Shown here piece by piece: positions 12,216 to 40,429 of a stretch of DNA of 64,000 nucleotides (position 1 is its first letter; the number at the start of each line of letters is the position of its first letter). Source of the stretch: Bacillota bacterium (GTDB lineage Bacteria; Bacillota; Dethiobacteria; DTU022); contig JBFMGD010000008.1 of assembly GCA_040751775.1 (NCBI GenBank), forward strand, positions 15,431-79,430. Reading direction: 5' to 3'. The translations under genes were made by a program, and so were the position numbers. The notes beneath the pieces were generated by a model, which saw nothing but the letters and a program-made list of their open reading frames with translations, was not told where the DNA came from and did no database searches.

Positions 12216-12229
12216 TGGTGGAGATCCCG

Positions 12230-12872: not shown

Positions 12873-12886
12873 TTGGTGATCAAGAT

Positions 12887-14080
12887 ATGAGTCGTTTAAC
12901 TCGGCCATCGATCTATGTTGTTACTCCCGGCACCTATCCAATACCGGCCAATCTGACCGGTTCTGTAGAGCTTTCGGTTATGCAGATATTCCCCTACCTA
13001 GCATCATCATATCAGGTTACTGTGATTGGGCGAAAGCAGCAGGGCGTCTTGCCTTCTTTAGATCATGTGGGATTGACGCGAAACCTTTATGTGTGCGGCG
13101 GAAAAGTTAATTTTGTCCAGATCCAGTCAACGATTAAGGATTACCCTGATCAATTGGCCCAACATCTTTCTCAGGGAATCAAATCAATTATTCACGTAGA
13201 AAACAGGCCCGCGTTGGTCAGTCGAATCAAAGAGCGCTACCCGCTATCTAAAATTTGGCTAAATTTGCACTCAATTACCTTTTTAGCGCCAGGCAAAAAT
13301 AATAACCATGATTTGGGTAATGCGCTTTCCCTTGCGGACAGAATTAGCGTGAACAGCGAGTTTTTGAAGCAGTATGTCTCTCATTTATTTCCCGCAATAC
13401 AACATAAAGTGTGGGTAAACTATCCTGGGGTCAACCATTTACATTATTTCCCTAGCTGTGAATCAAAAAATTATTTACGAAGAGGAACGGTTGCCGGTTT
13501 TTCTTCCCATGGACCGGTAATCCTTTATGTCGGCCGATTAAGGAAAATGAAAGGGGTTGATCACTTAATCAGGGCTTTCACCAGGGTCATCTCCGTTTAC
13601 CCATCTGCTCAGCTTTTAGTGATCGGGTCATCGGATTACACTGCTTATAAAGAATCAAGTTACACGCGGAGCCTGAAAATACTTGCTTCTTCATTGGGAT
13701 TGGAAAAGAACATCACCTTTAAGCCCCATACATCCGCCGATGAGCTGGTCAAGTGGTATCAGGTTAGCGATGTTTTTGTCTGTCCCTCGATTGTTAATGA
13801 AGCATTTGGGTTGGTTAACCTGGAAGCGATGTCATGTGGTATCCCGGTGATTGCATCTAAGATTGGTGGGATTCCGGAGGTAGTCGAGCACAATTATTCC
13901 GGTTTATTAGTCCCGCTTGATTACCATGAGGAGAGGTTGGCGGAAGCGATCCTCACTTTGGCCATGCATCCGGAGAGAGCCCGCCTTTTTGGGATGAACG
14001 GTCGTGTGAGAGTGCTTAATAAATTTACCTGGAAACACACGGCCGAGCGGTTAAAAAAGGACTATCAAGATCATTATTAA
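12887..14080 (+). CDS. GT4-family (GT-B) glycosyltransferase
   Basis: C-terminal EAFGLVNLEAMSCGIPVIASKIGGIPEVV (EX7E-type retaining GT4 motif). Confidence 0.85.
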   Translation: MSRLTRPSIYVVTPGTYPIPANLTGSVELSVMQIFPYLASSYQVTVIGRKQQGVLPSLDHVGLTRNLYVCGGKVNFVQIQSTIKDYPDQLAQHLSQGIKSIIHVENRPALVSRIKERYPLSKIWLNLHSITFLAPGKNNNHDLGNALSLADRISVNSEFLKQYVSHLFPAIQHKVWVNYPGVNHLHYFPSCESKNYLRRGTVAGFSSHGPVILYVGRLRKMKGVDHLIRAFTRVISVYPSAQLLVIGSSDYTAYKESSYTRSLKILASSLGLEKNITFKPHTSADELVKWYQVSDVFVCPSIVNEAFGLVNLEAMSCGIPVIASKIGGIPEVVEHNYSGLLVPLDYHEERLAEAILTLAMHPERARLFGMNGRVRVLNKFTWKHTAERLKKDYQDHY

Positions 14081-14110
14081 TGCTCGACCTGACCCGAAAC
14101 AATAAAAGGC

Positions 14111-15679
14111 TTGATCAATGTGTCATTCTGTCATCAAAATATACCATTATACAGGCCGCGTTTATCTGTGGTTATACCGGCAAAAAACGAAGCAAAAACA
14201 ATAGAGAGAGTGATAATGGAAGCCGGATCAGTCACAGATAGTGCCGAAATTATAGTAGTCTGTAACGGCAGTAACGATCAGTCGGCCGACATGGCCCGGA
14301 AAAAGGGAGCCCGTATCATCTGGTGCGAAGAAGATCTTGGTTATGATGTAGGACGTGCTATCGGGGCCAAATATGCAAATGGGGAGATTATCCTTTTTCT
14401 TGACGCTGACTATGTTGTTCCGGCTTTAACTTTAAGAGAGCTTTATTTGGATGTAAAAAGGGGCTATGATGTTGTCTTAAATAAGTACTCGGGCTTTCGG
14501 TCCAGGGTAAAAATTCATGTCACCTCCCAGGCAAAGAGGCTGTTAAATAAATACCTGGCCAAGGACAATTTAATCGGTAGCTCCATGACCACCACCCCCC
14601 ATGCTCTCAGCAGGAGAGCCTTGGAAACGATCGGCTATCATGCCCTGGCCGTGCCACCTTTAGCTTTGGCGAAAGCGGCCCTAAATCAATTGAAGATCCA
14701 CCGTTCGGCCAGGATTGATGTCGGCCGGTTCAACAAACGAAAGCCGAATCGAGAAGAAGTAAAAGACTTAATCATGGGGGATCATGCTGAAGCCATCGCG
14801 TATCTGATCCGGAAGAAGGGGATCAGAGGAGGCTTTGCGGACTTCCAGCGGCACCGCGAGGTTCTTGATCTGATTGAGCATCATGTAACGAGAATCAATG
14901 ATCAAGATAATGGACGCGCAAACAATGACTGTTTAAATTTATCGGTAGTCATACCGGCGCTTAATGAAGAAAAAACAATCGGTCCTCTGATAACAAATCT
15001 CAAACAGTTGCGGCCCAAAGAAATTCTGGTTGTTGAAAATGGTTCCACGGACCAAACATTACGGGTTTGTTATAACCATGGTGTAAAGATTTTATCTTTT
15101 ACCAGCCCGCTTGGCCATGATGTCGGTAGAGCGATCGGCGCCAAAGAAGCAAAGGGAGATTATATCCTTTTTCTCGACGGCGATATTATTTTCACCCCGG
15201 AAGAGTTGAGACCCTATGTGAACTTTTCTAATTGCGGCGCCGATATTCTGTTGAATAATATTAACCCTTTTTTTATGCTGTCTTCCATGATTGATTATAT
15301 CAGTATGGCGAATGCTCTGCTTAACAGTGCTTTATCCTTGCCTCAGCTGCAGTATTCTTCACTTACCTCAATCCCCCATGTGATACGCCGGTCGGCTGTT
15401 AACCTAATCGGTTTTCAAAACCTTGCCGTTCCCCCCAAAGCACTGGCGATCGCCGTGCTAAAGGGACTGAAGATTCAGCAAGCGGCCGGAATTAACGTAC
15501 TGGTTAGAAACCCTGTCAGGGAGCACAACAGGCGCAAAAAAAATAAAATCGAGGAGCTAATCCTGGGAGACCACCTCGAAGCGATTGAGCATGTCCAATC
15601 AGTGATCGGGAATCGCTTATTCCTTCCGGATACCAATCGCCGGCGGTACTTGATCGATCATGAATGGAAGATAATGTAA
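14111..15679 (+). CDS. Tandem-duplicated GT-A glycosyltransferase (two GT2/GT81-like domains in one chain)
   Basis: The two halves align: LSVVIPAKNEAKTI…LGYDVGRAIGAKYANGEIILFLDADYV versus LSVVIPALNEEKTI…LGHDVGRAIGAKEAKGDYILFLDGDII, and LAVPPLALAKAALNQLKI versus LAVPPKALAIAVLKGLKI. Confidence 0.8.
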   Translation: MINVSFCHQNIPLYRPRLSVVIPAKNEAKTIERVIMEAGSVTDSAEIIVVCNGSNDQSADMARKKGARIIWCEEDLGYDVGRAIGAKYANGEIILFLDADYVVPALTLRELYLDVKRGYDVVLNKYSGFRSRVKIHVTSQAKRLLNKYLAKDNLIGSSMTTTPHALSRRALETIGYHALAVPPLALAKAALNQLKIHRSARIDVGRFNKRKPNREEVKDLIMGDHAEAIAYLIRKKGIRGGFADFQRHREVLDLIEHHVTRINDQDNGRANNDCLNLSVVIPALNEEKTIGPLITNLKQLRPKEILVVENGSTDQTLRVCYNHGVKILSFTSPLGHDVGRAIGAKEAKGDYILFLDGDIIFTPEELRPYVNFSNCGADILLNNINPFFMLSSMIDYISMANALLNSALSLPQLQYSSLTSIPHVIRRSAVNLIGFQNLAVPPKALAIAVLKGLKIQQAAGINVLVRNPVREHNRRKKNKIEELILGDHLEAIEHVQSVIGNRLFLPDTNRRRYLIDHEWKIM

Positions 15680-15885
15680 TCTAAATCGAAAAACTTGCTA
15701 CTAAGCATAGGCTTGTTAATTTGGCCTCATTGTCCAAGACGGCGTTTTTACATATTTTATTAGCACACCTTCTTTAATGCTTAATAAGATATATTGGAGC
15801 ATATCTCAGATATATCAACTGAATATATTTAGCAGTATAAACTCAGTTGGTTTAATTAACCAAGGTTAAAAAATGGAGAAATACA

Positions 15886-16812
15886 ATGAACAAAAAGAAA
15901 ATCCTTATTCTCGGTGTGGCCGGTATGCTGGGTCACGCATTGTTTGTCTATCTTTCCAAGCTAGATAATTTGGATGTTTATGGAACCGCCAGAAATATAA
16001 CCGGACTTTCAGGGTTATTTGGATCTGAGCTGATGAAAAAAATACAGGACAATGTGAATGCACATAATTTTGATTCAATTGTTCATATGATCGCCGAAAC
16101 TAAGCCGGATCTGGTCATTAACTGCATTGGTATGATCAAGCAAGTGCCCGCGGCTCGCGATAATATTGAGACAATTTCAATGAATGCGCTTTTACCGCAT
16201 CGGATTGCCAGGATTTGCGGCATTTCCGGGTCACGGTTGTTACAGATAAGCACTGATTGCGTGTTTGATGGTGTAACAGGATCCTACCATGAGAGCGACA
16301 CTCCCAACCCTACGGATCTCTATGGAAGAACGAAACTATTGGGTGAATTAAATGACGCGCATTGTCTCACCCTGCGCACATCGATCATCGGTCATGAACT
16401 TAAGGATAAACATGGACTGATCGAATGGTTCCTTGGACAACAAAGCAGGGTTCGCGGGTTTACAAATGCCATTTATTCCGGGTTCCCAACAGTTGAAATA
16501 GCGTGGATTATCGGTAAATATGTGATCCCGAACCCAAAATTGACCGGACTTTATCATCTATCTGCAGATGCAATTTCAAAATATGATCTGCTCAGATTAG
16601 TTGCCGTTCAGTATAACAAACAAATTGAAATCGAACCTTGCAACGATTTTCATCTGGATCGGTCACTTGATTCTACCTTGTTCCGGCAGGTTACCGGTTA
16701 TAGCTCCCCTCCATGGCCTGAACTCGTCTCTAAAATGTACCAAGATTATATGACAGCGCCACACTATCAAAAAACCAGTTATTGGAAGAGGAACAAAGAA
16801 GTTGCTATTTGA
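15886..16812 (+). CDS. NAD(P)-dependent sugar-nucleotide reductase/epimerase (RmlD-substrate-binding-like; FnlB/CapF-role candidate)
   Basis: ILILGVAGMLGHALF Rossmann motif and extended SDR fold. Sits in a trio with a CapD-type dehydratase and a 2-epimerase. Confidence 0.7.
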   Translation: MNKKKILILGVAGMLGHALFVYLSKLDNLDVYGTARNITGLSGLFGSELMKKIQDNVNAHNFDSIVHMIAETKPDLVINCIGMIKQVPAARDNIETISMNALLPHRIARICGISGSRLLQISTDCVFDGVTGSYHESDTPNPTDLYGRTKLLGELNDAHCLTLRTSIIGHELKDKHGLIEWFLGQQSRVRGFTNAIYSGFPTVEIAWIIGKYVIPNPKLTGLYHLSADAISKYDLLRLVAVQYNKQIEIEPCNDFHLDRSLDSTLFRQVTGYSSPPWPELVSKMYQDYMTAPHYQKTSYWKRNKEVAI

Positions 16813-17860
16813 GAATAAAGTAATCGTCATTACGGGAGGAACCGGGTCTTTAGGGAAGGTGCTGACCCGCCGTTTACTGTTAAATGAATATGGATGTCCC
16901 AAAAAGATCATTATTTTCTCCAGGGACGAAGCAAAACAGCATTTTATGCGTATCGAGTACGAAAAAAGTAAGAAAGCCACGGACGAAGTAATTTACCGCA
17001 ATTTTGAGCGCTTGCTCGAATTCAGGATTGGTGATATCCGCAATTACCACTCTGTCTGTTCGGTACTGAAAGGGGCGGACATTGTAATCAATGCGGCTGC
17101 CCTTAAACAGGTTCCTTCCTGTGAATACTTTACTTATGAAGCCGTGCTGACTAATATTATCGGCGCCCAAAACATTGTGTCGGCCATAAGTGAAAATAAT
17201 CTTGAAATAGAAACGGTAATCGGGGTTTCTACCGATAAAGCCTGCAAGCCGGTCAATGTGATGGGAATGTGCAAGGCTTTGCAAGAACGGGTTTTTATTG
17301 CCGCGAATATTACAATCCCGGGAACCCGTTTTATTTGTGTGCGTTACGGTAATGTTCTCGCTTCCCGTGGCTCCGTAATACCTTTATTTCACGAACAAAT
17401 ATTGCATGGTGGCCCTGTTACCATTACGACAAAAGAGATGACCCGTTTCTTGTTGCCGCTGGAACAGGCTGTGGATACTATTTTTACCGCGATCAAAACA
17501 GCTAATCCCGGTGAGATATATGTTCCCAAGGTTCCTGCGGCAAGAATTGTTGATGTGGCGAAAGGGCTCATCAATAACCGTGAAATAGAGATCGTCTATA
17601 CGGGCATTCGTCCCGGGGAAAAAGTACATGAAATCTTGGTTTCCGATGAAGAAGCCTGGCGAACATTAGTATATGGAGAATATTACATTATCACATCGAT
17701 GCTTCCGGAACTGGCCAAGAAAGAATCAGGTTTACAGGCTTTAAACAAAGAATACAGTTCAGAAAATTCTTTAATGACATTTGAGGAGACCGTGCATCTT
17801 TTAGAGAAGCATCACTTGATGATCGGTCAGGAGATCAAAGAAGAGGAGTTCTTGTCATGA
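16802..17860 (+). CDS. UDP-GlcNAc 4,6-dehydratase, CapD/FnlA/PseB-like
   Basis: KVIVITGGTGSLGKVL N-terminus and polysaccharide-biosynthesis CapD-like fold. Overlaps the upstream gene, consistent with an operon. Confidence 0.8.
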   Translation: MLFENKVIVITGGTGSLGKVLTRRLLLNEYGCPKKIIIFSRDEAKQHFMRIEYEKSKKATDEVIYRNFERLLEFRIGDIRNYHSVCSVLKGADIVINAAALKQVPSCEYFTYEAVLTNIIGAQNIVSAISENNLEIETVIGVSTDKACKPVNVMGMCKALQERVFIAANITIPGTRFICVRYGNVLASRGSVIPLFHEQILHGGPVTITTKEMTRFLLPLEQAVDTIFTAIKTANPGEIYVPKVPAARIVDVAKGLINNREIEIVYTGIRPGEKVHEILVSDEEAWRTLVYGEYYIITSMLPELAKKESGLQALNKEYSSENSLMTFEETVHLLEKHHLMIGQEIKEEEFLS

Positions 17861-18942
17861 AGGTGCTGACGGTTTTAGGGACCCGCCCGGAAATAATTCG
17901 CCTGAGCCGGATCATGCCGGTTCTCGATCGCCTTTGTGACCACGTTGTGGTAAATACCGGCCAGAACTACGACCGGAATCTTAATGCCATCTTTTTTGCG
18001 GAACTGGGCTTGAGACAACCTGACTATATTTTAGCTTGCCAGTGCAAGAGTCCAATTGAACAGATCTGCACAATCCTTGAGGGCTGTGAAAAGGTCATGC
18101 TAAAGGAGCAACCGGATCGGCTCTTGATTCTAGGTGACACCAATAGTACCCTGTCGGCCATGGCCGCCAAAAGAATGGGTATCCCGGTCTTCCATATGGA
18201 GGCCGGCAATCGCTGTTACGACGATCGCGTTCCGGAGGAAGTAAACCGCCGCATCGTTGATCACTGTAGCGATATCTTAATGCCTTATACCGAGCGGAGT
18301 AGAGCCAACCTTATTCGGGAAGGGATTGCCGGTCAGCGGATTTATGTAACCGGCAATCCGATTATGGAAGTTCTGACCTATTATGCCCGGAGGATTGAAG
18401 AAAGCCGGGCTTTACATAAACTTGGTTTGGAGACTAAAAAGTTTTTTTTGGTGACCCTGCACCGGGCAGAGAATGTCGATCTGGAAGAGCGTCTCACTCA
18501 ATTTATCAAAGCGTTCCAACTCTTGAATGCCGAATATCAAATACCGGTGATTTGCAGTCTTCATCCGAGGACGCGATCACAACTCATGAAACGGGGTCAG
18601 ACGCTGGGTGGTGCAGGGATTCGGACTGTTGAACCTCTGGGATTATTTGATTTTGTGCATCTGGAAAAGAGCGCTTTTTGTGTTTTAAGTGACAGCGGGA
18701 CCGTCCAGGAAGAGTGCTGTATTTTGAAAATCCCTAATGTAACGCTGCGGGATGTTACCGAGCGGCCTGAGACGGTTGAAGTCGGCAGTAATATTGTTGC
18801 GGGCTGTGCACCGGAGGCCATCGTAGGGGCTGTAAAAACAGTCCTGGACCGGCCTGGCGATTGGGAACCGCCTCATGAATATTTGGCCGGGAGTGTCAGT
18901 AGCACTGTGGTCAAAATTGTCCTGGGGAATGCTTTGGTTTGA
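17857..18942 (+). CDS. UDP-N-acetylglucosamine 2-epimerase-family enzyme (FnlC/CapG-like)
   Basis: MKVLTVLGTRPEIIRLS…HMEAGNRCYDD… is a WecB-fold epimerase. Its pairing with the CapD and reductase genes suggests the UDP-L-FucNAc / 6-deoxy-L-HexNAc route. Confidence 0.8.
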   Translation: MKVLTVLGTRPEIIRLSRIMPVLDRLCDHVVVNTGQNYDRNLNAIFFAELGLRQPDYILACQCKSPIEQICTILEGCEKVMLKEQPDRLLILGDTNSTLSAMAAKRMGIPVFHMEAGNRCYDDRVPEEVNRRIVDHCSDILMPYTERSRANLIREGIAGQRIYVTGNPIMEVLTYYARRIEESRALHKLGLETKKFFLVTLHRAENVDLEERLTQFIKAFQLLNAEYQIPVICSLHPRTRSQLMKRGQTLGGAGIRTVEPLGLFDFVHLEKSAFCVLSDSGTVQEECCILKIPNVTLRDVTERPETVEVGSNIVAGCAPEAIVGAVKTVLDRPGDWEPPHEYLAGSVSSTVVKIVLGNALV

Positions 18943-18983
18943 GATCTTAGTGGTTGCGGAAGTAAAAAGAAGGGGATGGTTTT

Positions 18984-19820
18984 GTGCAGAAGCAGCCGCA
19001 GAATCAAAATAGGCCGTTTATTTTTGCGGGAAAGTATGATTTATCTTACCTCGTTTTCCCCGATTCCGCCATAGACCAGGATGTGGTGAGAGAGGGCGTT
19101 TACAGTGACTGGACAATACAGCTGCTGAGCCAGTTCCTGCCGGAAAACAGCATTATCCTGGATATTGGAGCAAATATCGGGGGGCTTGCGCTACCGCTAG
19201 CTAAAATGGTAGCTCCTCAGGGCGTTGTTTATGCTTTTGAGCCGGACTTCCAGAATGTAAGCCAACTGCAGATCAATAAGGAGCTGAATCAACTGGACAA
19301 TGTCGTGGTCCTGCCATTGGTTCTGCAGGATGATGCCCAGGTCGCAATGGTTTCCCTGTATATCAGGCGATCCACCGATCAAGAGGGGTTGGTAAATCGG
19401 GGGTTGTCAACCATTTTATGGATGCCGACCGATTATGTCCGAAAGGAAAGAGCCTTCTCCTCGACCATAGATGCCCAGGTCTGGGAACAACGGATCACGA
19501 AAGTTGATCTGATCAAGATCGATGTCGAGGGAGCCGAATTGAATGTCCTGCAGGGCGGTCACCGGACAATTGCCGGGCACCACCCGATCATCCTTTATGA
19601 GTTTTCCTCGGTCATTGATCATATGGCCAGCACTAACAACAGCGCTCAGGCTTATTATTATCTGAAAGAGATGGGATACAGGCAGTATGAAATGGCGAAG
19701 GGCTGGCTCCTGACAGAGATAAATAAACTTGACCGGGACTTCCCGTTAGTAAATATTCTCTGTTTTCATGAATCCAATTTACCGGAATCCTTGAAAACAC
19801 ATCGACTGAAGGGCGGATAA
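18984..19820 (+). CDS. FkbM-family SAM-dependent methyltransferase
   Basis: DIGANIGGLALPLAK…AFEPDFQN…KIDVEGAELNVLQG are FkbM/Methyltransf_21 hallmarks. Confidence 0.8.
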   Translation: MQKQPQNQNRPFIFAGKYDLSYLVFPDSAIDQDVVREGVYSDWTIQLLSQFLPENSIILDIGANIGGLALPLAKMVAPQGVVYAFEPDFQNVSQLQINKELNQLDNVVVLPLVLQDDAQVAMVSLYIRRSTDQEGLVNRGLSTILWMPTDYVRKERAFSSTIDAQVWEQRITKVDLIKIDVEGAELNVLQGGHRTIAGHHPIILYEFSSVIDHMASTNNSAQAYYYLKEMGYRQYEMAKGWLLTEINKLDRDFPLVNILCFHESNLPESLKTHRLKGG

Positions 19821-19824
19821 GTGT

Positions 19825-20589
19825 ATGAACTGCAAGGTATCAATTTTAATTACGACATTTCAGAGACCGCACTTATTAAAGTGGGGGCTGTATTCTTTGG
19901 CCAGACAATACATTCCGTTTACATTTGAAACCCTGGTGATCAATGACGGAGTTAATGATGAAACTGAAGAAATATGTCATAAATATCTGCGAAAGCTCAA
20001 TTTAAAATATCTATTTTCCGGGCAAAGAAATTTAAATGGCGCAATTGAGTGGCGAGTCCCCGGTTTTGCTTTTAATATCGGGGCAAAACAGTCTTTAGGA
20101 AAAGTCTTGATTTTGAGCTGCGCCGAAATGTTTCATCTAAATGACACTGTTTCAAAACTGGCTTATCCCGTATTGAAAAACCCGAACTTACTGGGCATAC
20201 CCGTTGGCAAATCCGACCGGGACGGTATTTTCCTTAACCATCTTAATGAGCACAACGGCCGCTTTACCCCCGCCTTATTTGAGCAACTGCCGGCATTGGA
20301 CGTCCGGCTTCCCTATTTGCTGTCTGTAAGCCGTAGCCAATATAATGCCATCGGGGGATATGATGAGGACTTCACCGGGGTAGCGGCTGAGGACAGCGAT
20401 CTTGTTGACAGGCTGCGGCTAAACGGATGCGGCTATTTTCAAACCAAAGCGGAAACCGTCCATTTATACCACCCGCGTCATTTGGGCGGCACGGAGCACC
20501 ATCCGGCCGTGCAGTATAACCGAAATCTTTATTATACCAGACAAGGCCGGATAGTTAGGAACGAAAAGAGGGAATGGGGTAAGCTATGA
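19825..20589 (+). CDS. Small GT-A glycosyltransferase (module A)
   Basis: VSILITTFQRPHLLKWGLYSLARQ…VINDGVNDETEE… It is paralogous to the C-terminal half of the 23422–25026 protein. Confidence 0.7.
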   Translation: MNCKVSILITTFQRPHLLKWGLYSLARQYIPFTFETLVINDGVNDETEEICHKYLRKLNLKYLFSGQRNLNGAIEWRVPGFAFNIGAKQSLGKVLILSCAEMFHLNDTVSKLAYPVLKNPNLLGIPVGKSDRDGIFLNHLNEHNGRFTPALFEQLPALDVRLPYLLSVSRSQYNAIGGYDEDFTGVAAEDSDLVDRLRLNGCGYFQTKAETVHLYHPRHLGGTEHHPAVQYNRNLYYTRQGRIVRNEKREWGKL

Positions 20590-25026: not shown

Positions 25027-25050
25027 TGCTGTCAGTTAAAGAGGGCCGGG

Positions 25051-25971: not shown

Positions 25972-25986
25972 CCTAACCTCCTCATG

Positions 25987-27138: not shown

Positions 27139-27238
27139 CGTGGGCTTACAACCTTCCCAGAGATTTTAACAACAGTGCCGCATTTAAAACAGGCTTATTT
27201 CAAAGCATATTCCCGGGAGATATTCTATGTTCATCACG

Positions 27239-28054: not shown

Positions 28055-28140
28055 TCACTCCCGTGTTTTTACTATTCCGGCATTCAGAATTCAGAATGCC
28101 CCAAGAATATGCTTCTCACAATTTACCAACCTTGGATTTA

Positions 28141-29247: not shown

Positions 29248-29266
29248 TTGAAATATTGCCTCCTTA

Positions 29267-30046: not shown

Positions 30047-30057
30047 GTTTAATGCTC

Positions 30058-31239
30058 CTAATCCTCGAGTAAACCGAGGTACAGCTTTTCATAATCCCGG
30101 GTGATTTTTTCCCAGGTAAAACTTTGTTGCCATGCCGCAAACCCGTTCTCTTGCATGGCTTCTCTTTTACCGGCGTCATTGAAGAGATCTTCCAAGAGCC
30201 GGACCGACCCAATTATGTCGGCCCTGCTGTAAACATATTCCTTATAATCTATTTCCGTGGGCAATAACAGCCCGCCCCCGGACCACGCCACGATCTCCCC
30301 GGCATTCCCGGCGTCGGTGGTTAAAAACGGCGTTTTTGAAGCCATGGCCTCAAAGAGAACCAGGGGCGAGCATTCGAGATTGGACGGGAAAAGGAAAAGG
30401 TCTGCCGCGTGGTACGCGGCGATAGTGGTCTTTCGGGGCAGTTCGGCCACAATTATTTTTTTACGCGCGAGTGCGGCGGGCGGGGATGAGTTATATGCCG
30501 CCGCCGTTGCCGTGCAGTGCCTGGTGCACCCGCCGCCGCCGAAGGTATTGGCGATCAGCAAAAATGTCGCGTTATTAATCTCTGCCTGCCGGAATATCTG
30601 CAGTGCTTCGGCATGGCCTTTTAAGCCCGTGTGTGATCCCACGTGCAGGATCAGGAAGTGGCCGGCGGGAATGCCCAATTCATGCCGGATATCTACCGCC
30701 GGCCGGGCTTGAAACTCATTGGCCCCCGCGCCGTTGGGAATCAGGGCCGTCCTGGTGATGCCGCATTCACGGGCAAAGTGAATGTCCCGGTAATCGTCCG
30801 AAAGAAAAACATTCATATCGTATTTCTTGAACCATGATTTCATTGACGTAAAATAATCTTTGTACTCCGGCATGTAGAGCCCGGAAAATCCGGTCGGGAC
30901 AAAGACTTTTTTAGCCTTGATCCGGTCCAGGATAGGCAGCATGATATCGGTGGCCCATTGTTGCGCCGCGAAATTGGCGATAATATCGCATTCCGCGTTG
31001 AGTAAAAAGTTGCGGTAGTGCGCCGTTTCCCCGTTCAACCCGCGCACGGCGTTGCCGGAAACAGAGAATTCAACGATCCTGACCCCGTTGATTATTTTGG
31101 CGGTCCTTTCGGGCAACCTGGTTGTGGCCACGGTAACCTCATGCCCCAGTTTAACCAGGCGTTCGGAAAGCTGTTTGACCACCTCCTGCATCCCGCCGAC
31201 GGAGGGAGGGTAAAATTCGACCGTATGCAGTATTTTCAA
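30058..31239 (-). CDS. GT4-family glycosyltransferase
   Basis: MKILHTVEFYPPSVGGMQEVV is the GT4 N-terminal motif, with GT-B C-terminal domain features. Confidence 0.8.
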   Translation of the reverse strand: MKILHTVEFYPPSVGGMQEVVKQLSERLVKLGHEVTVATTRLPERTAKIINGVRIVEFSVSGNAVRGLNGETAHYRNFLLNAECDIIANFAAQQWATDIMLPILDRIKAKKVFVPTGFSGLYMPEYKDYFTSMKSWFKKYDMNVFLSDDYRDIHFARECGITRTALIPNGAGANEFQARPAVDIRHELGIPAGHFLILHVGSHTGLKGHAEALQIFRQAEINNATFLLIANTFGGGGCTRHCTATAAAYNSSPPAALARKKIIVAELPRKTTIAAYHAADLFLFPSNLECSPLVLFEAMASKTPFLTTDAGNAGEIVAWSGGGLLLPTEIDYKEYVYSRADIIGSVRLLEDLFNDAGKREAMQENGFAAWQQSFTWEKITRDYEKLYLGLLED

Positions 31240-32870: not shown

Positions 32871-33712
32871 CTTGACAATCCCTCCGCATTACTGAATATC
32901 AAATCAACTTCCTGGTGGCAAGCGTTGGGCAGATAGCCGCTGTACTTTGCCACATTTATACGGTAACCGAGTTCAAATAGCCGGCCCAATTGATCGACCG
33001 TATATTGAGGGTTGCTTCCGGCCCGGTTTGGCCAAACATTTTGCACCATATTAACCGGGCTGCAAAAAGCAATGGAGTGACGGCTGCACAGAAGGTAATT
33101 TCCCCGGTTCATAAAAATATGCTTATGCGCGGCCATCCGGCCTTCCAGCGTATTCGGGTTTGCAAACCCCAACTGCCGCAGCAAAGGTAAAATATCGCCG
33201 ATCCTGTAAACCGAGCTGGATATCTCCAGGGGATAGCCGAAATCGCCTTCGGCGGAGCTCCAGTCATATTTTAAAAAGCCGCCGGCTGCTTCGCTGAACT
33301 CGGGTAGTTTCTGCGCAATGTCGCGGGAATAACAATATACCGTGTTGGACCCCAATCGAAGGGAAAATCCCAGGGCATCAGTGTTGTTTTCCAGGCCGGC
33401 TGTTACGTTTTCGACGGTAAAGTCCCGGACGAATATAGCGTCGTCTACCAGGAAAAGCACATATGCACCCGTTTCTAAACTTGACAGGACCTGTGGTTTA
33501 AAATCATTTTCCCGGATGAATTCCACGTCACCGTAATCACTGCTCAGCATATGGTAAAGGTCTTCATGGAAAGAGCCGGAAACGGTATAGAGTACCTTCA
33601 ACTGCAGGTTTTGCCTATCCCGGCAATGCAGCGACAGCGAGCTGAATACAGCTTCCAGTTGCATGGCCCTGTCCTTGCTGAAGATCAGTCCAGTAACGGT
33701 ATGGTCTTGCAT
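32867..33712 (-). CDS. Hypothetical protein, possible GT-A glycosyltransferase
   Basis: LIFSKDRAMQLEA…FLVDDAIF pattern. Weak assignment. Confidence 0.35.
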   Translation of the reverse strand: MQDHTVTGLIFSKDRAMQLEAVFSSLSLHCRDRQNLQLKVLYTVSGSFHEDLYHMLSSDYGDVEFIRENDFKPQVLSSLETGAYVLFLVDDAIFVRDFTVENVTAGLENNTDALGFSLRLGSNTVYCYSRDIAQKLPEFSEAAGGFLKYDWSSAEGDFGYPLEISSSVYRIGDILPLLRQLGFANPNTLEGRMAAHKHIFMNRGNYLLCSRHSIAFCSPVNMVQNVWPNRAGSNPQYTVDQLGRLFELGYRINVAKYSGYLPNACHQEVDLIFSNAEGLSR

Positions 33713-33793
33713 GGCTGCCCGCCTTTACCAACATTAATCTATTATATGAGTCGTGATCAGAGTGTGTAACCGGTGATTTACATTTTTGATATA

Positions 33794-34735
33794 TCAGTGA
33801 GAGTTATCCATTTTCTCATTTTTTATATCTAAAAAAATTTTAGCCGCTATTGTATCGGTCATATTTTCCAAAACCCATTTTCTTGGTTTGCAAGCAACTA
33901 ATTTTGCAGGGAGAGCCTCAAGCAGTTGTTCCAGTTCACCGGTGGTCGTCCATTGCATTCCTGTCAGATCGCACAAGTAGGGGCATGCTGAGAAAACGGC
34001 ATACTGCCGGGTTTCGATAACCAGTTCCCGGGGCGACCATACCAGGGTGGGTACATCCATGGACCACGCTTCAGCCAGGGCCAGCCCCTGGCTTTCACTT
34101 TTGCTTAAAAAAACCGCAAAAACACTTTTAGCCAATACATTTTTAAACTGTGCGGCGGTATAGCTGCCGTAAACAACCCTGACGGGATTCCAGCCGTGTT
34201 TAAGCAGGATTCGCTCGACTTGCCCGTTAAAATCTGCCGGTTCTGTTTTCCAGTAAACCAGAACCGTGTTCTCATTAGTAGATCTTATCTCCGGCTTCCA
34301 GTAGTTTTCATCTACACCGGCATACCAGCACCTGATCCTTCCTTTCAGGGCGGGCGCTGTCTCTTCATAAGCGATGCGCACCCAATCGGAAGGCACCAGG
34401 CAGATGTCCAACGCCGGTGAGGAGAAGATTTCCCGGAATCCTTTTGTGCGCACTGTCATCAGGTTTGGTCCGGCCAGCAGTTTATTGATATAACCCTTGT
34501 TTTTCCAGTCGATCGCCTCCATCAGGGTTTCGATGCCGCTTAAGACCGCTACCGTTTCTCCCACTTCGGCCATGTCGCCGGGATTATAATTGAAATGGGC
34601 GTCAATTTTTTGCAGGCCTTCAACCAGGCTGCGCGTAACGGCATAATGGCCGCCGTATCGTTTACCGGCATCGTTTACGGGCTCGGTAAGTAGAGTCAGC
34701 TTCGGATAATTGCTCATGAAAACTCCGCCCCCCAT
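33794..34735 (-). CDS. Putative GT-B glycosyltransferase (GT1/GT4-like C-terminal domain)
   Basis: LSKSESQGLALAEAWSMDVPTLVWSP resembles the EX7E region. Confidence 0.5.
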   Translation of the reverse strand: MGGGVFMSNYPKLTLLTEPVNDAGKRYGGHYAVTRSLVEGLQKIDAHFNYNPGDMAEVGETVAVLSGIETLMEAIDWKNKGYINKLLAGPNLMTVRTKGFREIFSSPALDICLVPSDWVRIAYEETAPALKGRIRCWYAGVDENYWKPEIRSTNENTVLVYWKTEPADFNGQVERILLKHGWNPVRVVYGSYTAAQFKNVLAKSVFAVFLSKSESQGLALAEAWSMDVPTLVWSPRELVIETRQYAVFSACPYLCDLTGMQWTTTGELEQLLEALPAKLVACKPRKWVLENMTDTIAAKIFLDIKNEKMDNSH

Positions 34736-34736
34736 T

Positions 34737-35933
34737 TTAAAGACTTTTCTTGCCGTAAATGACCGGGTAATTGTAACCTGCCGGGGCGTCGATTTTTACC
34801 GCGTAGCCGTATTTTTGCAAAAGATACCGGTGATATTCGATACTTGCCAGGTTGGCCAGGGCAGGACCCTGATGCCCGAGATTTGTCTGGAGAAAGATTT
34901 CGGGATTGTTGGCGCTGATTTTGCGGATGAATTCCTCGAACTTTTCACCGAAATGGTAGAGCACGCAGCAGGAAAAGAAAAAATCATGTCGCAATGCTGA
35001 AAAATCGAGGGTGGCGAGATCGCACTCGATATAGCGGATATTATCCAGGTTTTTCTCGCCGGCAAGGCTGAACAGGTTCTTGACAAAATAAGCCTGTTGG
35101 ACAACATTCTGTCTGGGTAAGTGTTCATTTGTCGGCTGAACCACGTTTTCCGCGCGGTCATAACCATCCACTTTTTGGGCGCCCAGCCGGGACATGTAGA
35201 TGCTGTAAAGACCGGTATTGCACCCGATGTCACAAACTGACTTGCCCCTTAAATCAGGCAAGTTTCCGGCAATAATATAATCCCATTTGCTTTTCCCGCG
35301 TTCCTTGTTGGTCAGGAACTCCGGGCGCTCCTTGAAATCGGGATAGGTGCGTTCGTGAATCACCCTGCCCTGAATTTCGAGCGGCGTATACCACTCCGGA
35401 AAGTCGTCGTGAAAATCGTTAAGATACCGGTCCAACTGGGCCAAAGGCGGCAGTGGATTTTTCTCAAAAACAAAAGCCGCCGGAACTTCTCTGATCCCCT
35501 GGGCAAGCAAGATAGATGCACGATGTACACCGTCCATGATCACATTGATCACGCCGGTTTCTGTTTTGACTTGTTCACAAATAATATAATTGGCTGAATA
35601 AGCTCCTTCCAGGTACTTTTCACCTGTAGACAGCAGCCGCTCAAAATTTTCAACAGAATGTTCCGCTCCGAACCCCACGTTAAGGCCATAGGTCTCCAGA
35701 TATGCATTATAGGATTCTTTTTTACCGTTAATATACTGAAAGTGCGGCGTATCTCTTAATTTGACCAGGGAATGTTCTACCATTCGGCCGGTAGAACCGG
35801 TAATAATCCTGGCGAATATTGTTTCCAAGTCGGTCTTACAGATTAAATAAGGTTCGTCCTTGAGGCCGTTTAAGTTTTCTGGAAGACTCAAATGAAAACT
35901 AAAATTACGATGATCTGCTTTATAGCCATGCAT
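34737..35933 (-). CDS. Two-domain protein with C-terminal class-I SAM methyltransferase
   Basis: KSVCDIGCNTGLYSIYMSRLGAQKVDGYD (motif I/post-I). The N-terminal ~200 aa are unassigned. Confidence 0.65.
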   Translation of the reverse strand: MHGYKADHRNFSFHLSLPENLNGLKDEPYLICKTDLETIFARIITGSTGRMVEHSLVKLRDTPHFQYINGKKESYNAYLETYGLNVGFGAEHSVENFERLLSTGEKYLEGAYSANYIICEQVKTETGVINVIMDGVHRASILLAQGIREVPAAFVFEKNPLPPLAQLDRYLNDFHDDFPEWYTPLEIQGRVIHERTYPDFKERPEFLTNKERGKSKWDYIIAGNLPDLRGKSVCDIGCNTGLYSIYMSRLGAQKVDGYDRAENVVQPTNEHLPRQNVVQQAYFVKNLFSLAGEKNLDNIRYIECDLATLDFSALRHDFFFSCCVLYHFGEKFEEFIRKISANNPEIFLQTNLGHQGPALANLASIEYHRYLLQKYGYAVKIDAPAGYNYPVIYGKKSL

Positions 35934-36120
35934 TAAGTTCTCTCCTTCTGTCTAAAACGGATCGTTAATTCCACAACAGTTTTATGTATTATATGAACCG
36001 GTATAGCCATAATGTCACGGTTGAAAGCATATCCCCATACAATAGAACCAGGGTCAGATTTTGATAGACGAACGTATGCTCATGAAGATAGATTAGTTAT
36101 TGGGGGTATCATTGCACATT

Positions 36121-38076
36121 ATGAAAAAGTGGCTGGTTACCGGGGGGGCCGGTTTCATCGGCTGCAATATGGTTAGGCTGACCATCGCGCAAGGCGGCGT
36201 CCGTATTGTTAACCTCGATAAACTAACTTATGCGGGATGCCTGGAGTCCCTGGCTTCCATGCAAGGCAGCCCCGACCATATTTTTGTCCATGGCAGTATT
36301 GAAGACAAATGTTTGGTCTCGGAGCTGTTAAACAAGTATCAGCCTGACGCGGTGATTAACTTTGCTGCGGAAACCCACGTCGATCGTTCCATCGACGGCC
36401 CCGCGGAATTTATTCAGACCAATATCGTTGGGACGTTCGCACTGCTGGAGGCCGTCCGGGAATACTGGGAGAGTCTGCAAGGTGAACAACGAGATTATTT
36501 CCGTTACTTGCAGATTTCCACGGATGAGGTGTACGGCTCCCTTGACGCCGCGGGATATTTTTCCGAGCAGAACAGGTACGATCCGCGCTCGCCTTATTCC
36601 GCCTCCAAGGCGTCCGCGGATCACCTGGTGCGCTCTTATCACCACACCTACGGTCTGCCCGTGCTAATTACCCATTGTTCTAATAATTACGGCCCCTACC
36701 AGTTCCCGGATAAGCTCATTCCCCTCATGCTGATGAATATTCTTGAGGAAAAACAGCTGCCGGTGTACGGGGACGGGGAAAATGTCCGTGACTGGCTTTA
36801 CGTGGAAGACCACTGCCGGGCCATCCGGAGAGTGTTGGAGCGCGGCCGCAGCGGTGAGTCTTACAATATCGGCGGCAACAATGAAAAAACCAACATTCAG
36901 GTGGTTAATACTCTTTGTGAGTTATGTGACGAGCTGCTGCCGCGCCGGGACGGCCGGAGCCACCGCGGGCAAATCGTTTTCGTGCCGGATCGTCCCGGCC
37001 ATGACCGGCGTTATGCCATCGATGCCGCTAAAATTAAGCGTGAACTGGGTTGGGAGCCTGTGGAAACGCTGGAAACCGGGATGCGCAAAACCGTGGATTG
37101 GTATCTTGATCACAGGGAATGGTGCCGGCGTGTTTGCGCCGGAAAATACGGCGGTGAGCGCCTGGGCCTGGGCCGCCCGGCTCCGCAGGCAAAAAAGAGA
37201 TTAAAAAAAGGGATCATCCTGGCCGGCGGTAGCGGCACCAGGCTTTACCCGCTAACCGCGATCCTAAATAAGCACCTCATGCCGGTTTATGACAAGCCGC
37301 TAATCTATTATCCCTTGACCACCCTGATGCTGGCGGGAATTACGGAGATCCTGGTGATCACTACCCCGCGGGACCGCCGCCTTTTCGAGGAGCTGCTTCA
37401 AGACGGCAGCCGGTGGGGGATCAGTATTCATTACGCGGAGCAGCCCAACCCCGCCGGCGAGGCGCAGGCTTTCCTGATCGGGCGGGAGTTCATCGGCCAT
37501 GATCGCTGCGCGCTAATCCAGGGGGACAATATTTTTCACGGTCACGATCTCGCCGCTTGTTTACAGGAGGCCGCGGCACAAGAAGACGGAGCCACGGTGT
37601 TTGCGTACCGGGTCACGGATCCGGAGCGCTTCGGCGTGGTTGAATTTGACGCGGCAGGCAAGGTCTTAAGCATTGAGGAAAAACCTTTAAGGCCCAAGTC
37701 GAACTATGCCCGGATCGGACTTTTATTTTTTGACAACCAGGTCGTTGGGATGGCCGCCGGCCTTAAACCGTCAGCCCGCGGTGAACTGGAAATGACCGAT
37801 CTTAACAAGCTCTACCTGCAGCAAGGTCAATTACGGGTGAAAAAACTGGGCCAAGGTTTCGCCTGGTTTGATGCAGGCACCCGCCAATCACTGTTGGAGG
37901 CGGCCGTTTTTGTCGAAACAATAGAAAAGTGCCAGGGAATCAAAATTGCCTGTCCGGAGGAGACTGCTTACCGCCTGGGGCTGATTAGCGCCACGCAGGT
38001 GGCAAGGTTGGTTGAACCTTTACAGAAGAACGAATACGGTCAATATCTTCTCAATCTTGTGCAGGGGGTTGATTAA
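36121..38076 (+). CDS. rmlBA: Fused dTDP-glucose 4,6-dehydratase (RmlB) and glucose-1-phosphate thymidylyltransferase (RmlA)
   Basis: N-terminal [16 protein letters not shown]…[12 protein letters not shown] is RmlB. After a KRLKK linker comes [16 protein letters not shown]… (RmlA). The ATG at 36121 is preferred over the TTG at 36100. Confidence 0.85.
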
Positions 38077-38077
38077 A

Positions 38078-38644
38078 GTGAATGTGACTGAAACCAAACT
38101 TCCCGGGGTTAAGATCATTGACCCGAGGGTATTTACTGATACCCGGGGTTTCTTCATGGAAACATGGAGCCGGGCCCGTTATATGAAAGCCGGACTGCCG
38201 GACGTCTTTGCCCAGGATAACCTTTCTTGCTCCATCAGGGGTGTCTTGCGCGGCCTGCATTTCCAGCATCCGAGTGAACAGGGAAAACTGGTTTACGTCA
38301 TCCAAGGCGAGGTATTTGATGTGGCCGTGGATATCCGGGTCAATTCACCTACCTTTGGCCGGTGGGTTGGCGTTATCCTTTCCGGTAACAACAAACGGCA
38401 GCTGTATATTCCCGAGGGTTTTGCCCATGGGTATTGTGTAACCAGTAAAACCGCCCTGTTCGCCTATAAGTGTACGGACTGCTACAATCCCCGGGCGGAA
38501 GGTGCCATCAGGTGGGATGATCCGGATCTTGGCATCAACTGGCCGAATGACCAGCCGATTTTAGCCGAAAAAGACAAGATCTGCCCCCGCCTCAGCGATA
38601 TCCCGTTGGATCGGCTGCCGCGGTACAGGGAGATAGAACGATGA
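38078..38644 (+). CDS. rmlC: dTDP-4-dehydrorhamnose 3,5-epimerase
   Basis: GTG at 38078, two nucleotides after the rmlBA stop, preceded by GGGGG. …FTDTRGFFMETWS…HFQ… cupin fold. Confidence 0.85.
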   Translation: MNVTETKLPGVKIIDPRVFTDTRGFFMETWSRARYMKAGLPDVFAQDNLSCSIRGVLRGLHFQHPSEQGKLVYVIQGEVFDVAVDIRVNSPTFGRWVGVILSGNNKRQLYIPEGFAHGYCVTSKTALFAYKCTDCYNPRAEGAIRWDDPDLGINWPNDQPILAEKDKICPRLSDIPLDRLPRYREIER

Positions 38645-39531
38645 ACGTTATTGCGCCGCCCAGAATTATGCTTACCGGCATGAGCGGCCAGGTTGGCTGG
38701 GAACTGCGGCGGACCCTGGCGCCGCTAGGTGCAGTAGTGGCCCTAAACCGCCGGCAGCTTGATCTGGCGGTTCCGGGCCAAATCCGGGAGCGGGTCAGGG
38801 AGATCAAACCAAACCTGATCGTTAATGCCGCCGCCTACACCGCTGTGGATAAGGCGGAGGAGGAGATGGAACTGTGCAGAGCGGTTAACGGAACAGCGCC
38901 GGGCATCTTGGCCGAAGAAGCAAAAAGCCTGAATGCCGTGCTTATCCATTATTCCACAGACTATGTTTTTGACGGCACCAAGAAGATACCTTACGTCGAA
39001 GATGATGAACCCAACCCGCTGAATATATATGGCCGGACCAAACTGGAAGGGGAACGTGCTGTTCAGGCCGTGGGGGTACCCCATCTGATTTTGCGCGTAA
39101 GCGGGGTTTATGGAAAAAGGGGCAAAAATTTTATGTTAACCGTGTTACGGCTGGCGAGAGAGAAGGGGGAACTGAAGGTAGTTGATGACCAGGTAGGCAG
39201 TCCAACCTGGAGCCGCATGATTGCCGAGGCAACGGCCCAGATACTGGCCCGGGGATATTATGCGCTTTTAGAAAGAGGGGGAGTATACCATTTAAGTGCC
39301 GGGGGAGAGACCAGTTGGTATGGCTTTGCCAGGGCTACATTGGCCCGGAGTGGAAAACCCGGGCTGCATTCCGTCCAAATTATGCCGATTTCCACCGGCC
39401 AGTACCGCTCCGTGGCCCGGCGGCCGGCGTACGCGGTCCTCTCCAACGGTAAATTAAACCGCACATTCGGCATTGCTTTGCCGGACTGGGAAGCGGCATT
39501 GGATCTGGTTATGGATGAGCAGTTATTGTAG
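38641..39531 (+). CDS. rmlD: dTDP-4-dehydrorhamnose reductase
   Basis: MLTGMSGQVGWEL…NAAAYTAVDKAE…YSTDYVFDG is the RmlD pattern. Confidence 0.85.
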   Translation: MNVIAPPRIMLTGMSGQVGWELRRTLAPLGAVVALNRRQLDLAVPGQIRERVREIKPNLIVNAAAYTAVDKAEEEMELCRAVNGTAPGILAEEAKSLNAVLIHYSTDYVFDGTKKIPYVEDDEPNPLNIYGRTKLEGERAVQAVGVPHLILRVSGVYGKRGKNFMLTVLRLAREKGELKVVDDQVGSPTWSRMIAEATAQILARGYYALLERGGVYHLSAGGETSWYGFARATLARSGKPGLHSVQIMPISTGQYRSVARRPAYAVLSNGKLNRTFGIALPDWEAALDLVMDEQLL

Positions 39532-40429
39532 AGAAATAGCGCTTAAGCCGCTTCCGCCCGTCCGTCAAAGCATGGCCATATCTTTCGGCATCCCATCTCC
39601 AATGCTTTCGCGCTTTTTTCAATAGCAAGTTCACCCATCCGGCCGCAGCCTTCCGGTCACAGGGTAGCGGCCTTTCTCCCAGAGCCCGCGGGTATACCGT
39701 CAGGTAGCGGTGGAATGCGGGCGCCTCACGCCCGGCAATCGCCCGGGCCAGTTCCCGACTGGAGGCGATGGCCTGGCGGATGTGTTCATTTTTTCGGGTG
39801 TTAAAGGCGCCGTCGGGACGGTAGCGGTAATGCAGGAGCACTTCCGGCAGCCTGGCGATGCGGGCCTTTAAAGCGAGGCGGCTCCACAGGTCCCCGTCTT
39901 CATCAGGAATCATCCGATACCTCAGGTTGAATTGCCGAAGGGCTGCCATCCTCATTACTGCGGTAGGATGAGCAACGGGGTTATCCCAAAGCAGAATCCA
40001 TTCCAAGGGAGCCGGGGTTTTAGACCACCAGGGGGGTGTAATAATTTTCCCTTCGGAGTTGATTGACCGGACGTTTGTTCCACACAGCCCATATTCAGGG
40101 TTTGCCTCCATAAACTCAACCTGATTGGCCAGGCGCTCAGGCAGGCTGATATCATCACTATCCATCCTGGCCATGTATTCGCCTCCGGCCAGGTCAATAC
40201 CTATATTTAATGCGGCGGCAATTCCCCTGTTCTTTGAACTTTGGACAAGCTTGACCCGCCGATCATTATAAGCATTTACGATAGCGGCACTGGAATCGGT
40301 TGAGCCGTCGTCAATGACCAGGAGTTCAAAGTCGGTGTAAGTCTGGTTTAAGATACTGTCGACTGCCTCCCGCAAATATTTTTCCCCGTTGAAAACAGGC
40401 AACACAACCGTTACTTTCGGCCTCCTCAA
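39509..40429 (-). CDS. GT2 glycosyltransferase (inverted paralogue of 25051–25971)
   Basis: VTVVLPVFNGEKYLREAVDSILNQTYTDFELLVIDDGSTDSS…RMDSDD. Overlaps the rmlD 3' end by 23 bp, convergently. Confidence 0.85.
   Translation of the reverse strand: MRRPKVTVVLPVFNGEKYLREAVDSILNQTYTDFELLVIDDGSTDSSAAIVNAYNDRRVKLVQSSKNRGIAAALNIGIDLAGGEYMARMDSDDISLPERLANQVEFMEANPEYGLCGTNVRSINSEGKIITPPWWSKTPAPLEWILLWDNPVAHPTAVMRMAALRQFNLRYRMIPDEDGDLWSRLALKARIARLPEVLLHYRYRPDGAFNTRKNEHIRQAIASSRELARAIAGREAPAFHRYLTVYPRALGERPLPCDRKAAAGWVNLLLKKARKHWRWDAERYGHALTDGRKRLKRYFSTITAHP

Follow-up and report, generated by a model that had tools for sequence, protein, structure and literature searches.

Gene content of the island

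A glycan-biosynthesis island was analysed in a stretch of 64,000 nucleotides of DNA from a Bacillota bacterium (assembly GCA_040751775.1, contig JBFMGD010000008.1, positions 15,431 to 79,430), which is called the window here and to which all coordinates refer. The island occupies 12887-40429. Open reading frame (ORF) calling together with Pfam and NCBIfam showed 23 ORFs in four transcription blocks, in agreement with an earlier note on this DNA that had claimed at least 22 genes on two strands. Block 1 is stated to hold 11 genes, of which 10 are itemised in the feature list (Table 1), and the itemised total of all blocks is 23. The GC content inside the island ranges from 0.44 to 0.58.

Kyte-Doolittle scans showed no transmembrane segment in any island protein, and the few hydropathy peaks were Rossmann beta-1 strands. 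A six-frame scan of the 64-kb window produced two betaine ATP-binding cassette (ABC) permeases as the only polytopic ORFs. Pfam and NCBIfam scans of the whole window produced no match to the Wzx, Wzy, Wzm/Wzt, WecA/phosphoglycosyltransferase (PGT), TagA or oligosaccharyltransferase families, nor to ABC2_membrane or Wzt_C, and the sole ABC system present was for OpuA-type betaine uptake. Also, no Pfam family of an initiating polyprenyl-phosphate glycosyl-phosphate transferase (WecA/TagO or WbaP type) was matched in the window. The nucleotide-sugar enzymes and glycosyltransferases (GTs) of the island are soluble, and a lipid-carrier primer, a flippase, a polymerase and an exporter are all absent from the window. 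These scans bore out the earlier note, which had described an island free of Wzx, Wzy, exporter, primer and membrane proteins, with soluble GTs that include one with a tetratricopeptide repeat (TPR) tail. It had named membrane-embedded GTs, or a Wzx/Wzy or ABC exporter plus an initiating transferase just outside the window, as signs of an ordinary wall polysaccharide locus; inside the 64 kb none of these was found.

Table 1. Features of the island and its left border, ordered by position, with the evidence or remark for each (GT, glycosyltransferase; MT, methyltransferase; SAM, S-adenosylmethionine).
Feature	Position	Strand	Evidence or remark
Duplicate of the promoter and 5' leader of the first operon	10125-10203	+	79-nt direct repeat, 86% identical with 12756-12834
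Second sigma-K-type motif, in duplicated leader	10130-10157	+	Motif match
Further 28-nt copy	10420-10447	+	96% identical with 12844-12871
Sigma-K-type motif ACC-N17-CATAATATA	12761-12788	+	99 nt upstream of first island gene
Block 1: GT4, tandem GT2, reductase/dehydratase/2-epimerase, FkbM MT, four further GT proteins	12887-25971	+	
GT4 (GT-B) GT	12887-14080	+	Pfam; also matches YkvP/CgeB-type Glyco_trans_1_2 model; no transmembrane segment
Two-domain GT2	14111-15679	+	Pfam, two GT2 stretches
RmlD-like NAD(P)H 4-reductase, no true RmlD	15886-16812	+	95 bits vs cut-off 224
Short CapD-family UDP-GlcNAc 4,6-dehydratase, CapE/FnlA/PseB type	16802-17860	+	Pfam, NCBIfam, PDB sequence search
Non-hydrolysing UDP-HexNAc 2-epimerase, third member of the trio	17857-18942	+	Pfam, NCBIfam
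FkbM-family SAM methyltransferase	18984-19820	+	Pfam, NCBIfam scan
GT-A domain (GT2 + Glyco_transf_7C), B-type, 254 aa	19825-20589	+	Pfam; sequence comparison
948-aa three-domain GT: GT32-like DXD N-domain, GT2, A-type GT-A	20586-23432	+	Pfam; paralogy
Two-domain (A-type + B-type) GT-A GT, 534 aa	23422-25026	+	Pfam; sequence comparison
GT2	25051-25971	+	Pfam
Block 2: 9 genes, from the 398-aa MT protein down to wecB	35933-25987	-	
WecB/MnaA UDP-GlcNAc 2-epimerase (to UDP-ManNAc)	25987-27138	-	TIGR00236 488 bits
GT2	27239-28054	-	Pfam
GT2 with C-terminal TPR tail	28141-29247	-	Pfam
259-aa protein without Pfam match	29267-30046	-	Family alignment, domain fusions
GT4 (GT-B) GT	30058-31239	-	Pfam
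Class-I SAM methyltransferase (N-domain) fused to GT2	31236-32870	-	Pfam
281-aa GT-A-fold GT, family without Pfam model	32867-33712	-	AlphaFold2 (AF2) + Foldseek
Internal sigma-K-type motif (ACACAC...TCATATAATA)	33740-33767	-	28 nt upstream of 33712 (281-aa GT)
313-aa protein, weakly GT-B-like	33794-34735	-	E = 0.03; 79% identity to L031 copy
398-aa protein: N-domain without family + class-I SAM methyltransferase C-domain	34737-35933	-	Pfam, NCBIfam
Sigma-K-like motif AC-N18-CATATAATA	35987-36015	-	53 nt upstream of 35933 (fifth unit)
Sigma-K-type motif AC-N17-CATACAATA	36017-36044	+	56 nt upstream of rml operon
Block 3: rmlB-rmlA fusion, rmlC, rmlD	36100-39531	+	
RmlB-RmlA in-frame fusion, 658 aa	36100-38076	+	TIGR01181 486 bits, TIGR01207 441 bits, both above cut-off
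RmlC	38012-38644	+	Pfam
RmlD	38641-39531	+	Pfam
Block 4: one GT2	40429-39509	-	
GT2, last island gene	39509-40429	-	Pfam; 79% identity to first gene of L031 island
Sigma-K-type motif AC-N16-CATAAAATA	40512-40538	-	83 nt upstream of 40429 (last GT2)

The three nucleotide-sugar routes that had been claimed were all found: dTDP-L-rhamnose (dTDP-L-Rha), UDP-N-acetylmannosamine (UDP-ManNAc), and a CapE-like dehydratase/reductase/2-epimerase trio, the last at the level of enzyme class. The rml genes and wecB scored above the NCBIfam equivalog cut-offs. The halves of the RmlB-RmlA fusion are a dTDP-glucose 4,6-dehydratase and a glucose-1-phosphate thymidylyltransferase; the start of this ORF is probably the ATG at 36121, and the true start of RmlC probably lies downstream of 38012. 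In the trio, the dehydratase, 4-reductase and 2-epimerase classes are all adjacent. The dehydratase had 4j2o (UDP-GlcNAc 4,6-dehydratase/5-epimerase), CapE and FlaA1 as its best PDB sequence matches and scored below the equivalog cut-offs of FnlA (250 vs 730) and PseB (300 vs 408). Because of these scores no exact sugar was assigned, and the predicted product of the trio is likely a sugar of the 2-acetamido-2,6-dideoxy-L-hexose class. The same three enzyme classes stand in one block in Staphylococcus aureus (CapE/F/G), Pseudomonas aeruginosa (WbjB/C/D, L-FucNAc) and Vibrio cholerae O37 (WbvB/R/D, L-QuiNAc). WbvR is an RmlD-like reductase, and the island reductase is likewise RmlD-like rather than CapF-like.

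Counts of GT and METHYLTRANSFERASE domains showed 13 GT domains above Pfam thresholds, a figure that further evidence raises to 15 and that may reach 18, together with three methyltransferase (MT) domains. The earlier figure of at least 17 GT domains is plausible: 15 are solid, and any figure beyond that depends on probable domains, 18 at most. The three probable further transferases are the GT32-like N-terminus of the 948-aa GT, the 313-aa GT-B-like ORF and the 259-aa ORF. Four S-adenosylmethionine methyltransferases had been claimed, of which three were found (the FkbM-family gene at 18984, the N-domain at 31236-32870 and the C-domain at 34737-35933). In the 948-aa GT, residues 554-818 share 53% identity with the N-half of the 534-aa GT, whose C-half shares 65% with the 254-aa protein; there are therefore two GT-A module types (A and B), each present twice. 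These duplicated modules suggest a repeating unit in the glycan.

Two of the proteins belong to families with no Pfam model. The AF2 model of the 281-aa protein (35 homologues) had a predicted local distance difference test score (pLDDT) of 92, and Foldseek matched it to the GT-A enzymes GnT-I, SpsA and TarP; its family gave more than 1,000 database hits. The family of the 259-aa protein comprised 811 cluster representatives with an invariant D123-H-D125, often fused behind GT2, GT6 or GT8 domains. A single-sequence AlphaFold model of this protein had a pLDDT of 33, and the best E value of the family profile against PDB was 0.25. PDB sequence searches with the two proteins produced no match, and neither did an hhalign comparison of the two families. 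The 259-aa protein is probably a GT-A-like transferase. The first 210 or so residues (1-210) of the 398-aa protein produced no hit in Pfam or NCBIfam, and the whole protein is 83% conserved in the island of a relative. This N-domain holds the string 'DGVHR', which recalls ParB/Srx-like folds by eye only.

Promoter motifs and related loci

The window was scanned on both strands for the pattern AC-N17-CATANNNTA and for its N16 and N18 spacer forms. The published sigma-K consensus of Clostridioides difficile has AC at -35 and CATATAAT at -10 (PMC3789822), and the island motif equals it; the pattern is seen in the divergent intergenic region 35934-36099 and in the other gaps 5' of island units. 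The N17 form had 4 matches in 64 kb against 1.14 expected; three of them sit 28-99 nt 5' of island genes on the correct strand, and the fourth is the duplicated copy. Four exact motifs (N16/N17) were found in the 8 island upstream regions against 0.06 expected, and none of 20,000 composition-preserving shuffles reached 4, while the 14 non-island upstream regions of the window had 0 matches. The strict sigma-E pattern ATA-N16-18-CATAYANT produced no match in the window, and scans for generic sigma-70 promoters and for terminators did no better than chance.

With the ~630 aa at the C-terminus of the 948-aa GT as query, 29 homologous loci were retrieved, none closer than about 60%. Homologues of the reductase and the dehydratase adjoin this GT core in nearly all 29, and the island reductase has 54-59% identity to the gene linked to the large GT across them. 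Fifteen Desulfosporosinus/Desulfitobacteriaceae loci carry a collagen GxT-repeat gene 1-5 kb 3' of the 948-aa GT homologue and the reductase/dehydratase pair; the contigs of these loci often break inside the collagen repeats. The collagen gene of D. hippei (locus L020) matched Pfam Collagen and BclA_C; after it come genes for another collagen protein, a GT2-TPR, a rhamnosyl-O-methyltransferase-like protein and further GTs. The hallmark common to the BclA-linked loci is the ~630-aa core, and the link between the island and BclA is the homology of four genes with 31-76% identity (54-76% for three core genes, 31-37% for the GT4). A Syntrophomonas locus contained a CgeB-like GT and abuts a dacF-spoIIAA-spoIIAB-sigF-like operon.

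A copy of the minus-strand operon was found in the related metagenome-assembled genome (MAG) GCA_020060545.1 (locus L031), with 78-89% amino acid identity and on a contig other than that of its intact NagB. Its neighbours are rnhB, two SleB/CwlJ-family genes and a YheC/D-type ATP-grasp gene. The promoter motif occurs just twice in the 20.8 kb of L031, before the homologue of the 281-aa GT and before a 135-aa SleB/CwlJ-family (CwlJ-like) gene; at the 281-aa homologue the -35 and -10 are the same as in the window and the spacer has diverged. In locus L035, 5 of the 6 motif matches precede genes of the syntenic island, including back-to-back divergent promoters. The motif also precedes a manC-pmm-GT operon in Desulforamulus reducens MI-1 (L033), and conserved copies of it in Desulfosporosinus lie 5' of the GT4 gene and of the operon that includes the BclA-like collagen gene. 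No motif was found upstream of genes in the loci of non-spore-formers.

The partners fused to the ~630-aa core differed by lineage (loci L001-L029, proteins P0242-P0360): Glyco_transf_7C in Desulfosporosinus, GT4 in Ignavibacteria, Coriobacteriia and archaea, Methyltransf_24 in Syntrophomonadaceae and the GT32-like domain in the present island. Such varied fusions indicate extensive domain shuffling.

A proposed mother-cell locus and competing explanations

The island is interpreted, with a probability of about 70%, as a mother-cell-expressed sporulation locus for spore-surface glycans, whether of the exosporium, the crust or the coat. Late in sporulation, RNA polymerase with a sigma-K-type (possibly sigma-E/K) factor would transcribe at least four island units. 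Soluble enzymes would produce dTDP-L-Rha, UDP-ManNAc and a UDP-2-acetamido-2,6-dideoxy-L-hexose (L-RhaNAc/L-QuiNAc or L-FucNAc type), and the 15-18 soluble GT-A/GT-B domains, several of them duplicated and fused, would assemble one or more O-methylated glycans of rhamnose and N-acetylhexosamine (HexNAc). These glycans would be built directly on spore-surface proteins, the likeliest acceptors being BclA-like collagen-repeat or other exosporium/coat proteins encoded elsewhere. As mother-cell cytoplasm surrounds the forespore, the pathway could do without an undecaprenyl primer, a flippase, a polymerase or an ABC exporter, and export machinery may be missing from the island because the spore surface layers form inside the mother cell. 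The earlier note had given no reason why an exporter should be dispensable, and mother-cell assembly would supply one. Its proposal of cytoplasmic assembly on a protein or other soluble acceptor is consistent with all the tests, with the protein acceptor itself inferred. Among the contexts it had listed (flagellin, S-layer and spore coat), the spore is favoured by the sigma-K motifs and by the BclA-like linkage in Desulfosporosinus.

That spore proteins can be glycosylated in the mother-cell cytoplasm is a principle already established in Bacillus (sps and BclA) and in C. difficile (SgtA). Spore polysaccharides are made by the mother cell, are covalently linked to coat/crust proteins without an exporter and contain rhamnose and quinovose (PMC11708026). 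The B. subtilis sps operon is controlled by sigma-K, and spsA-L, spsM, cgeAB/cgeCDE and yfnED/HGF resemble the island as a mother-cell sigma-K multigene system (PMC517825), a likeness seen here by motif only. Further likenesses to sps are the dTDP-rhamnose genes in the locus (spsI-L), the soluble GT2 enzymes, with SpsA among the fold matches of the 281-aa protein, and a CapD-family enzyme (SpsM). Unlike sps, the island has many more GT domains (15-18), three MTs and an RmlB-RmlA fusion, comes from a different host lineage, and has the 6-deoxy-L-HexNAc-type trio instead of legionaminic-acid genes (PMC7439481).

In B. anthracis/cereus, rml genes and anthrose/cereose genes near bclA provide rhamnose-rich, O-methylated O-glycans on a collagen-repeat exosporium protein (PMC6222408, PMC6947953, PMC12357932). 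The BclA glycan includes 2-O-methylated anthrose on a rhamnose chain (PMC6222408), and the part of PMC12357932 that cites Maes 2016 places short O-glycans on the collagen region and larger ones on the C-terminal domain. Sigma-K is needed for bclA genes (PMC3789822). In C. difficile, BclA3 is glycosylated by SgtA, whose gene adjoins bclA3 (PMC7157674), just as the core homologues of Desulfosporosinus adjoin Collagen + BclA_C genes. In contrast to the BclA systems, the window has no bclA-like gene, and the island has far more GTs and, as predicted sugars, ManNAc and a 6-deoxy-HexNAc with no anthrose pathway.

In three non-Firmicute loci, from Methanomassiliicoccales, Ignavibacteriales and Chloroflexi (L013, L015 and L023), the homologue of the 948-aa GT stands directly after an ABC-2 permease (Wzm) and a Wzt-like ATPase; the Wzt_C domain was matched in 2 of the 3, and the Ignavibacteriales locus also has Wzy_C proteins. 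This arrangement supports an ordinary cell-envelope polymer (a secondary cell-wall polysaccharide, S-layer glycan or O-antigen-like chain) assembled on undecaprenyl phosphate, with the primer (TagO/WecA) and Wzm/Wzt encoded elsewhere. Priming enzymes are often unlinked and the genome beyond the window could encode them, wecB is present, and multi-domain GTs with MTs are typical of that route. The Wzm/Wzt systems of Escherichia coli O9a (WbdA/WbdD) and Geobacillus stearothermophilus (WsaE) share with the island the multi-domain, duplicated GT-A modules, the MT-GT fusion and the rml genes; on the ABC route, of which these two are examples, a terminal methyl cap is read by Wzt. Multi-domain GTs and a methyltransferase are present here but are common to spore glycan loci too, so they do not discriminate. 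Exporters normally sit within such loci, whereas no ABC-2 permease, Wzt, PGT, TagA or ligase was found in the 64 kb or in the sequenced flanks of the Firmicute islands L031, L035, L033 and L020; unlike the Wzm/Wzt systems, the island and its Firmicute relatives have no Wzm, Wzt, primer, ligase or oligosaccharyltransferase and carry sporulation-type motifs. The same catalytic core therefore comes with an exporter in non-spore-formers and lacks one in spore-formers. With sigma-K-type motifs before four units and homologous loci linked to BclA-like genes, the envelope polymer is considered unlikely.

The soluble GTs, including the TPR-tailed GT2, would also suit glycosylation in vegetative cells of flagellin, pilin or another secreted protein modified in the cytoplasm. 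Flagellin glycosylation is cytoplasmic and exporter-free, and some flagellins carry methylated rhamnose. No flagellar, pilus, S-layer, Maf or nonulosonic-acid genes were found in the window or among the annotated neighbours of L009, L020, L031, L033 and L035, however, which leaves the flagellin and S-layer contexts of the earlier note with no gene in either set. The 15-18 GT domains far exceed the needs of known flagellin glycans and the motif is sigma-K-like, not sigma-D/FliA-like, so that this explanation is quite improbable.

Soluble enzymes, several O-methyltransferases and the lack of an export system are also what would be seen if a soluble small molecule or lipid were glycosylated, such as a natural product or a methylated polysaccharide of the cytoplasm, of which the methylmannose polysaccharide (MMP) and methylglucose lipopolysaccharide (MGLP) of mycobacteria are examples. 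The island has no aglycone, scaffold or acyl-transfer genes, and the sugar set (Rha, ManNAc and 6-deoxy-HexNAc) with the BclA, sigma-K and CgeB-like links points instead to a surface structure; a product of this kind has very little probability.

Several points weigh against the mother-cell spore-surface locus. The four island units appear to carry sigma-K-type promoters by a short motif, and the motif does not separate sigma-E from sigma-K. The gene of the acceptor is outside the window, as the earlier note had said of the target: no collagen GXX repeat occurs in any frame of the window, which also lacks coat-protein families and flagellar or S-layer genes, and linkage to a spore-surface structural gene (BclA-like, Cot, Cge or Exs) was found in homologous loci only. 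There are no sporulation genes within the window, and the host is presumed to sporulate because a relative with 71-78% identity has SleB/CwlJ- and YheC/D-type genes. Wall-polymer linkage units typically use UDP-ManNAc, genes for Wzm/Wzt, TagO/WecA or TagA could lie outside the 64 kb, and homologues of the 948-aa GT appear, from their gene neighbourhoods, to work with Wzm/Wzt in other phyla. Also, none of the 10 island GT/MT proteins scanned matched an NCBIfam equivalog, a further difference from sps, and no equivalog thus names any of the GTs.

A bolder version of the mother-cell proposal is tentative and rather doubtful. According to it, polymerising GT modules that elsewhere serve undecaprenyl-linked Wzm/Wzt export would have been repurposed for a long O-methylated Rha/ManNAc/6-deoxy-HexNAc polysaccharide made directly on a spore-surface protein with no lipid carrier; the GT-A families without a Pfam model (281-aa and 259-aa) would participate, and Desulfitobacteriaceae with their relatives would share, across the lineage, an exosporium glycan system not described before. 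The searched literature had nothing on such loci in Desulfotomaculum- or Desulfosporosinus-type organisms.

If the mother-cell interpretation is right, anaerobic Bacillota of environmental importance, related to Desulfosporosinus, Desulforamulus and Syntrophomonas, would join Bacillus and Clostridioides among the bacteria with spore-surface glycosylation. The glycans on a spore control its adhesion, hydrophobicity and dispersal, which matters for how sulfate and metal reducers persist in sediments and aquifers. The island would also offer a comparative case of one GT core that is found with Wzm/Wzt in non-spore-formers and transporter-free in spore-formers, and it flags two sizeable GT families for which Pfam has no model.

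Borders of the island and further observations

The duplicated promoter and leader sit 2.6 kb upstream of the first operon's own copy. Between the copies are an N-terminal fragment of a flavin adenine dinucleotide (FAD)-binding protein (10708-11043, minus strand), the 3' two-thirds of NagB (11501-12040), with 84% amino acid identity to the intact gene of the related MAG, and a crotonase-like pseudogene fragment (12149-12400, minus strand). The region 10125-12871 looks like the scar of an island insertion or rearrangement. In GCA_020060545.1 the HD-GYP neighbour (71%) is followed by the intact NagB, with no island there. The truncated NagB, the duplicated leader, the relocated copy in the relative and the spread of GC content therefore describe a mosaic, relocatable island. 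A simple insertion, with the sigma-54 activator of the right flank as the orthologue of the one beside the NagB of the relative, was rejected: the activators are 30-45% identical, and the genomes are therefore rearranged and not one insertion apart. An ORF of 169 aa with two hydrophobic stretches (12381-12890) is not considered a gene: it had no family match and overlaps both the crotonase-like pseudogene fragment and the promoter/leader, whose duplicate lies in the 10-12.9 kb stretch of decayed genes.

At the right border, 40508-40963 encodes 151 aa of a DAO-family FAD oxidoreductase, covering only positions 54-176 of the profile; this fragment is probably a pseudogene and overlaps the promoter region of the last GT2. 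The flanks contained signalling proteins, decayed gene fragments, the sigma-54 activator, MttB-type methyltransferases, betaine uptake genes, an electron-transfer flavoprotein (ETF) and FAD oxidases. Rfam and tRNA scans of the window produced no matches.

DUF7852 proteins adjoin GT clusters in D. hippei (L020, 13305-14255) and in Desulforamulus reducens (L033, 223-2418). The D. hippei gene lies between the large GT and the BclA-like genes and has a sigma-K-like motif 5' of it. These proteins, of which the searched literature made no mention, are candidate spore-surface proteins or acceptors. In L035 (Logan contig SRR22746129, 4843-7764), a GvpA gas-vesicle gene lies just upstream, and a CBM96-domain protein is inserted between the reductase and the dehydratase.

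Adjoining the sigma-54 activator, the region 43282-52872 of the window contained two non-pyrrolysine MttB-family methyltransferases, the OpuA-type betaine ABC importer, and proline-racemase-like, octopine-dehydrogenase-like and PanB-like proteins. It looks like a cluster for the demethylation of a quaternary amine (betaine or proline-betaine).

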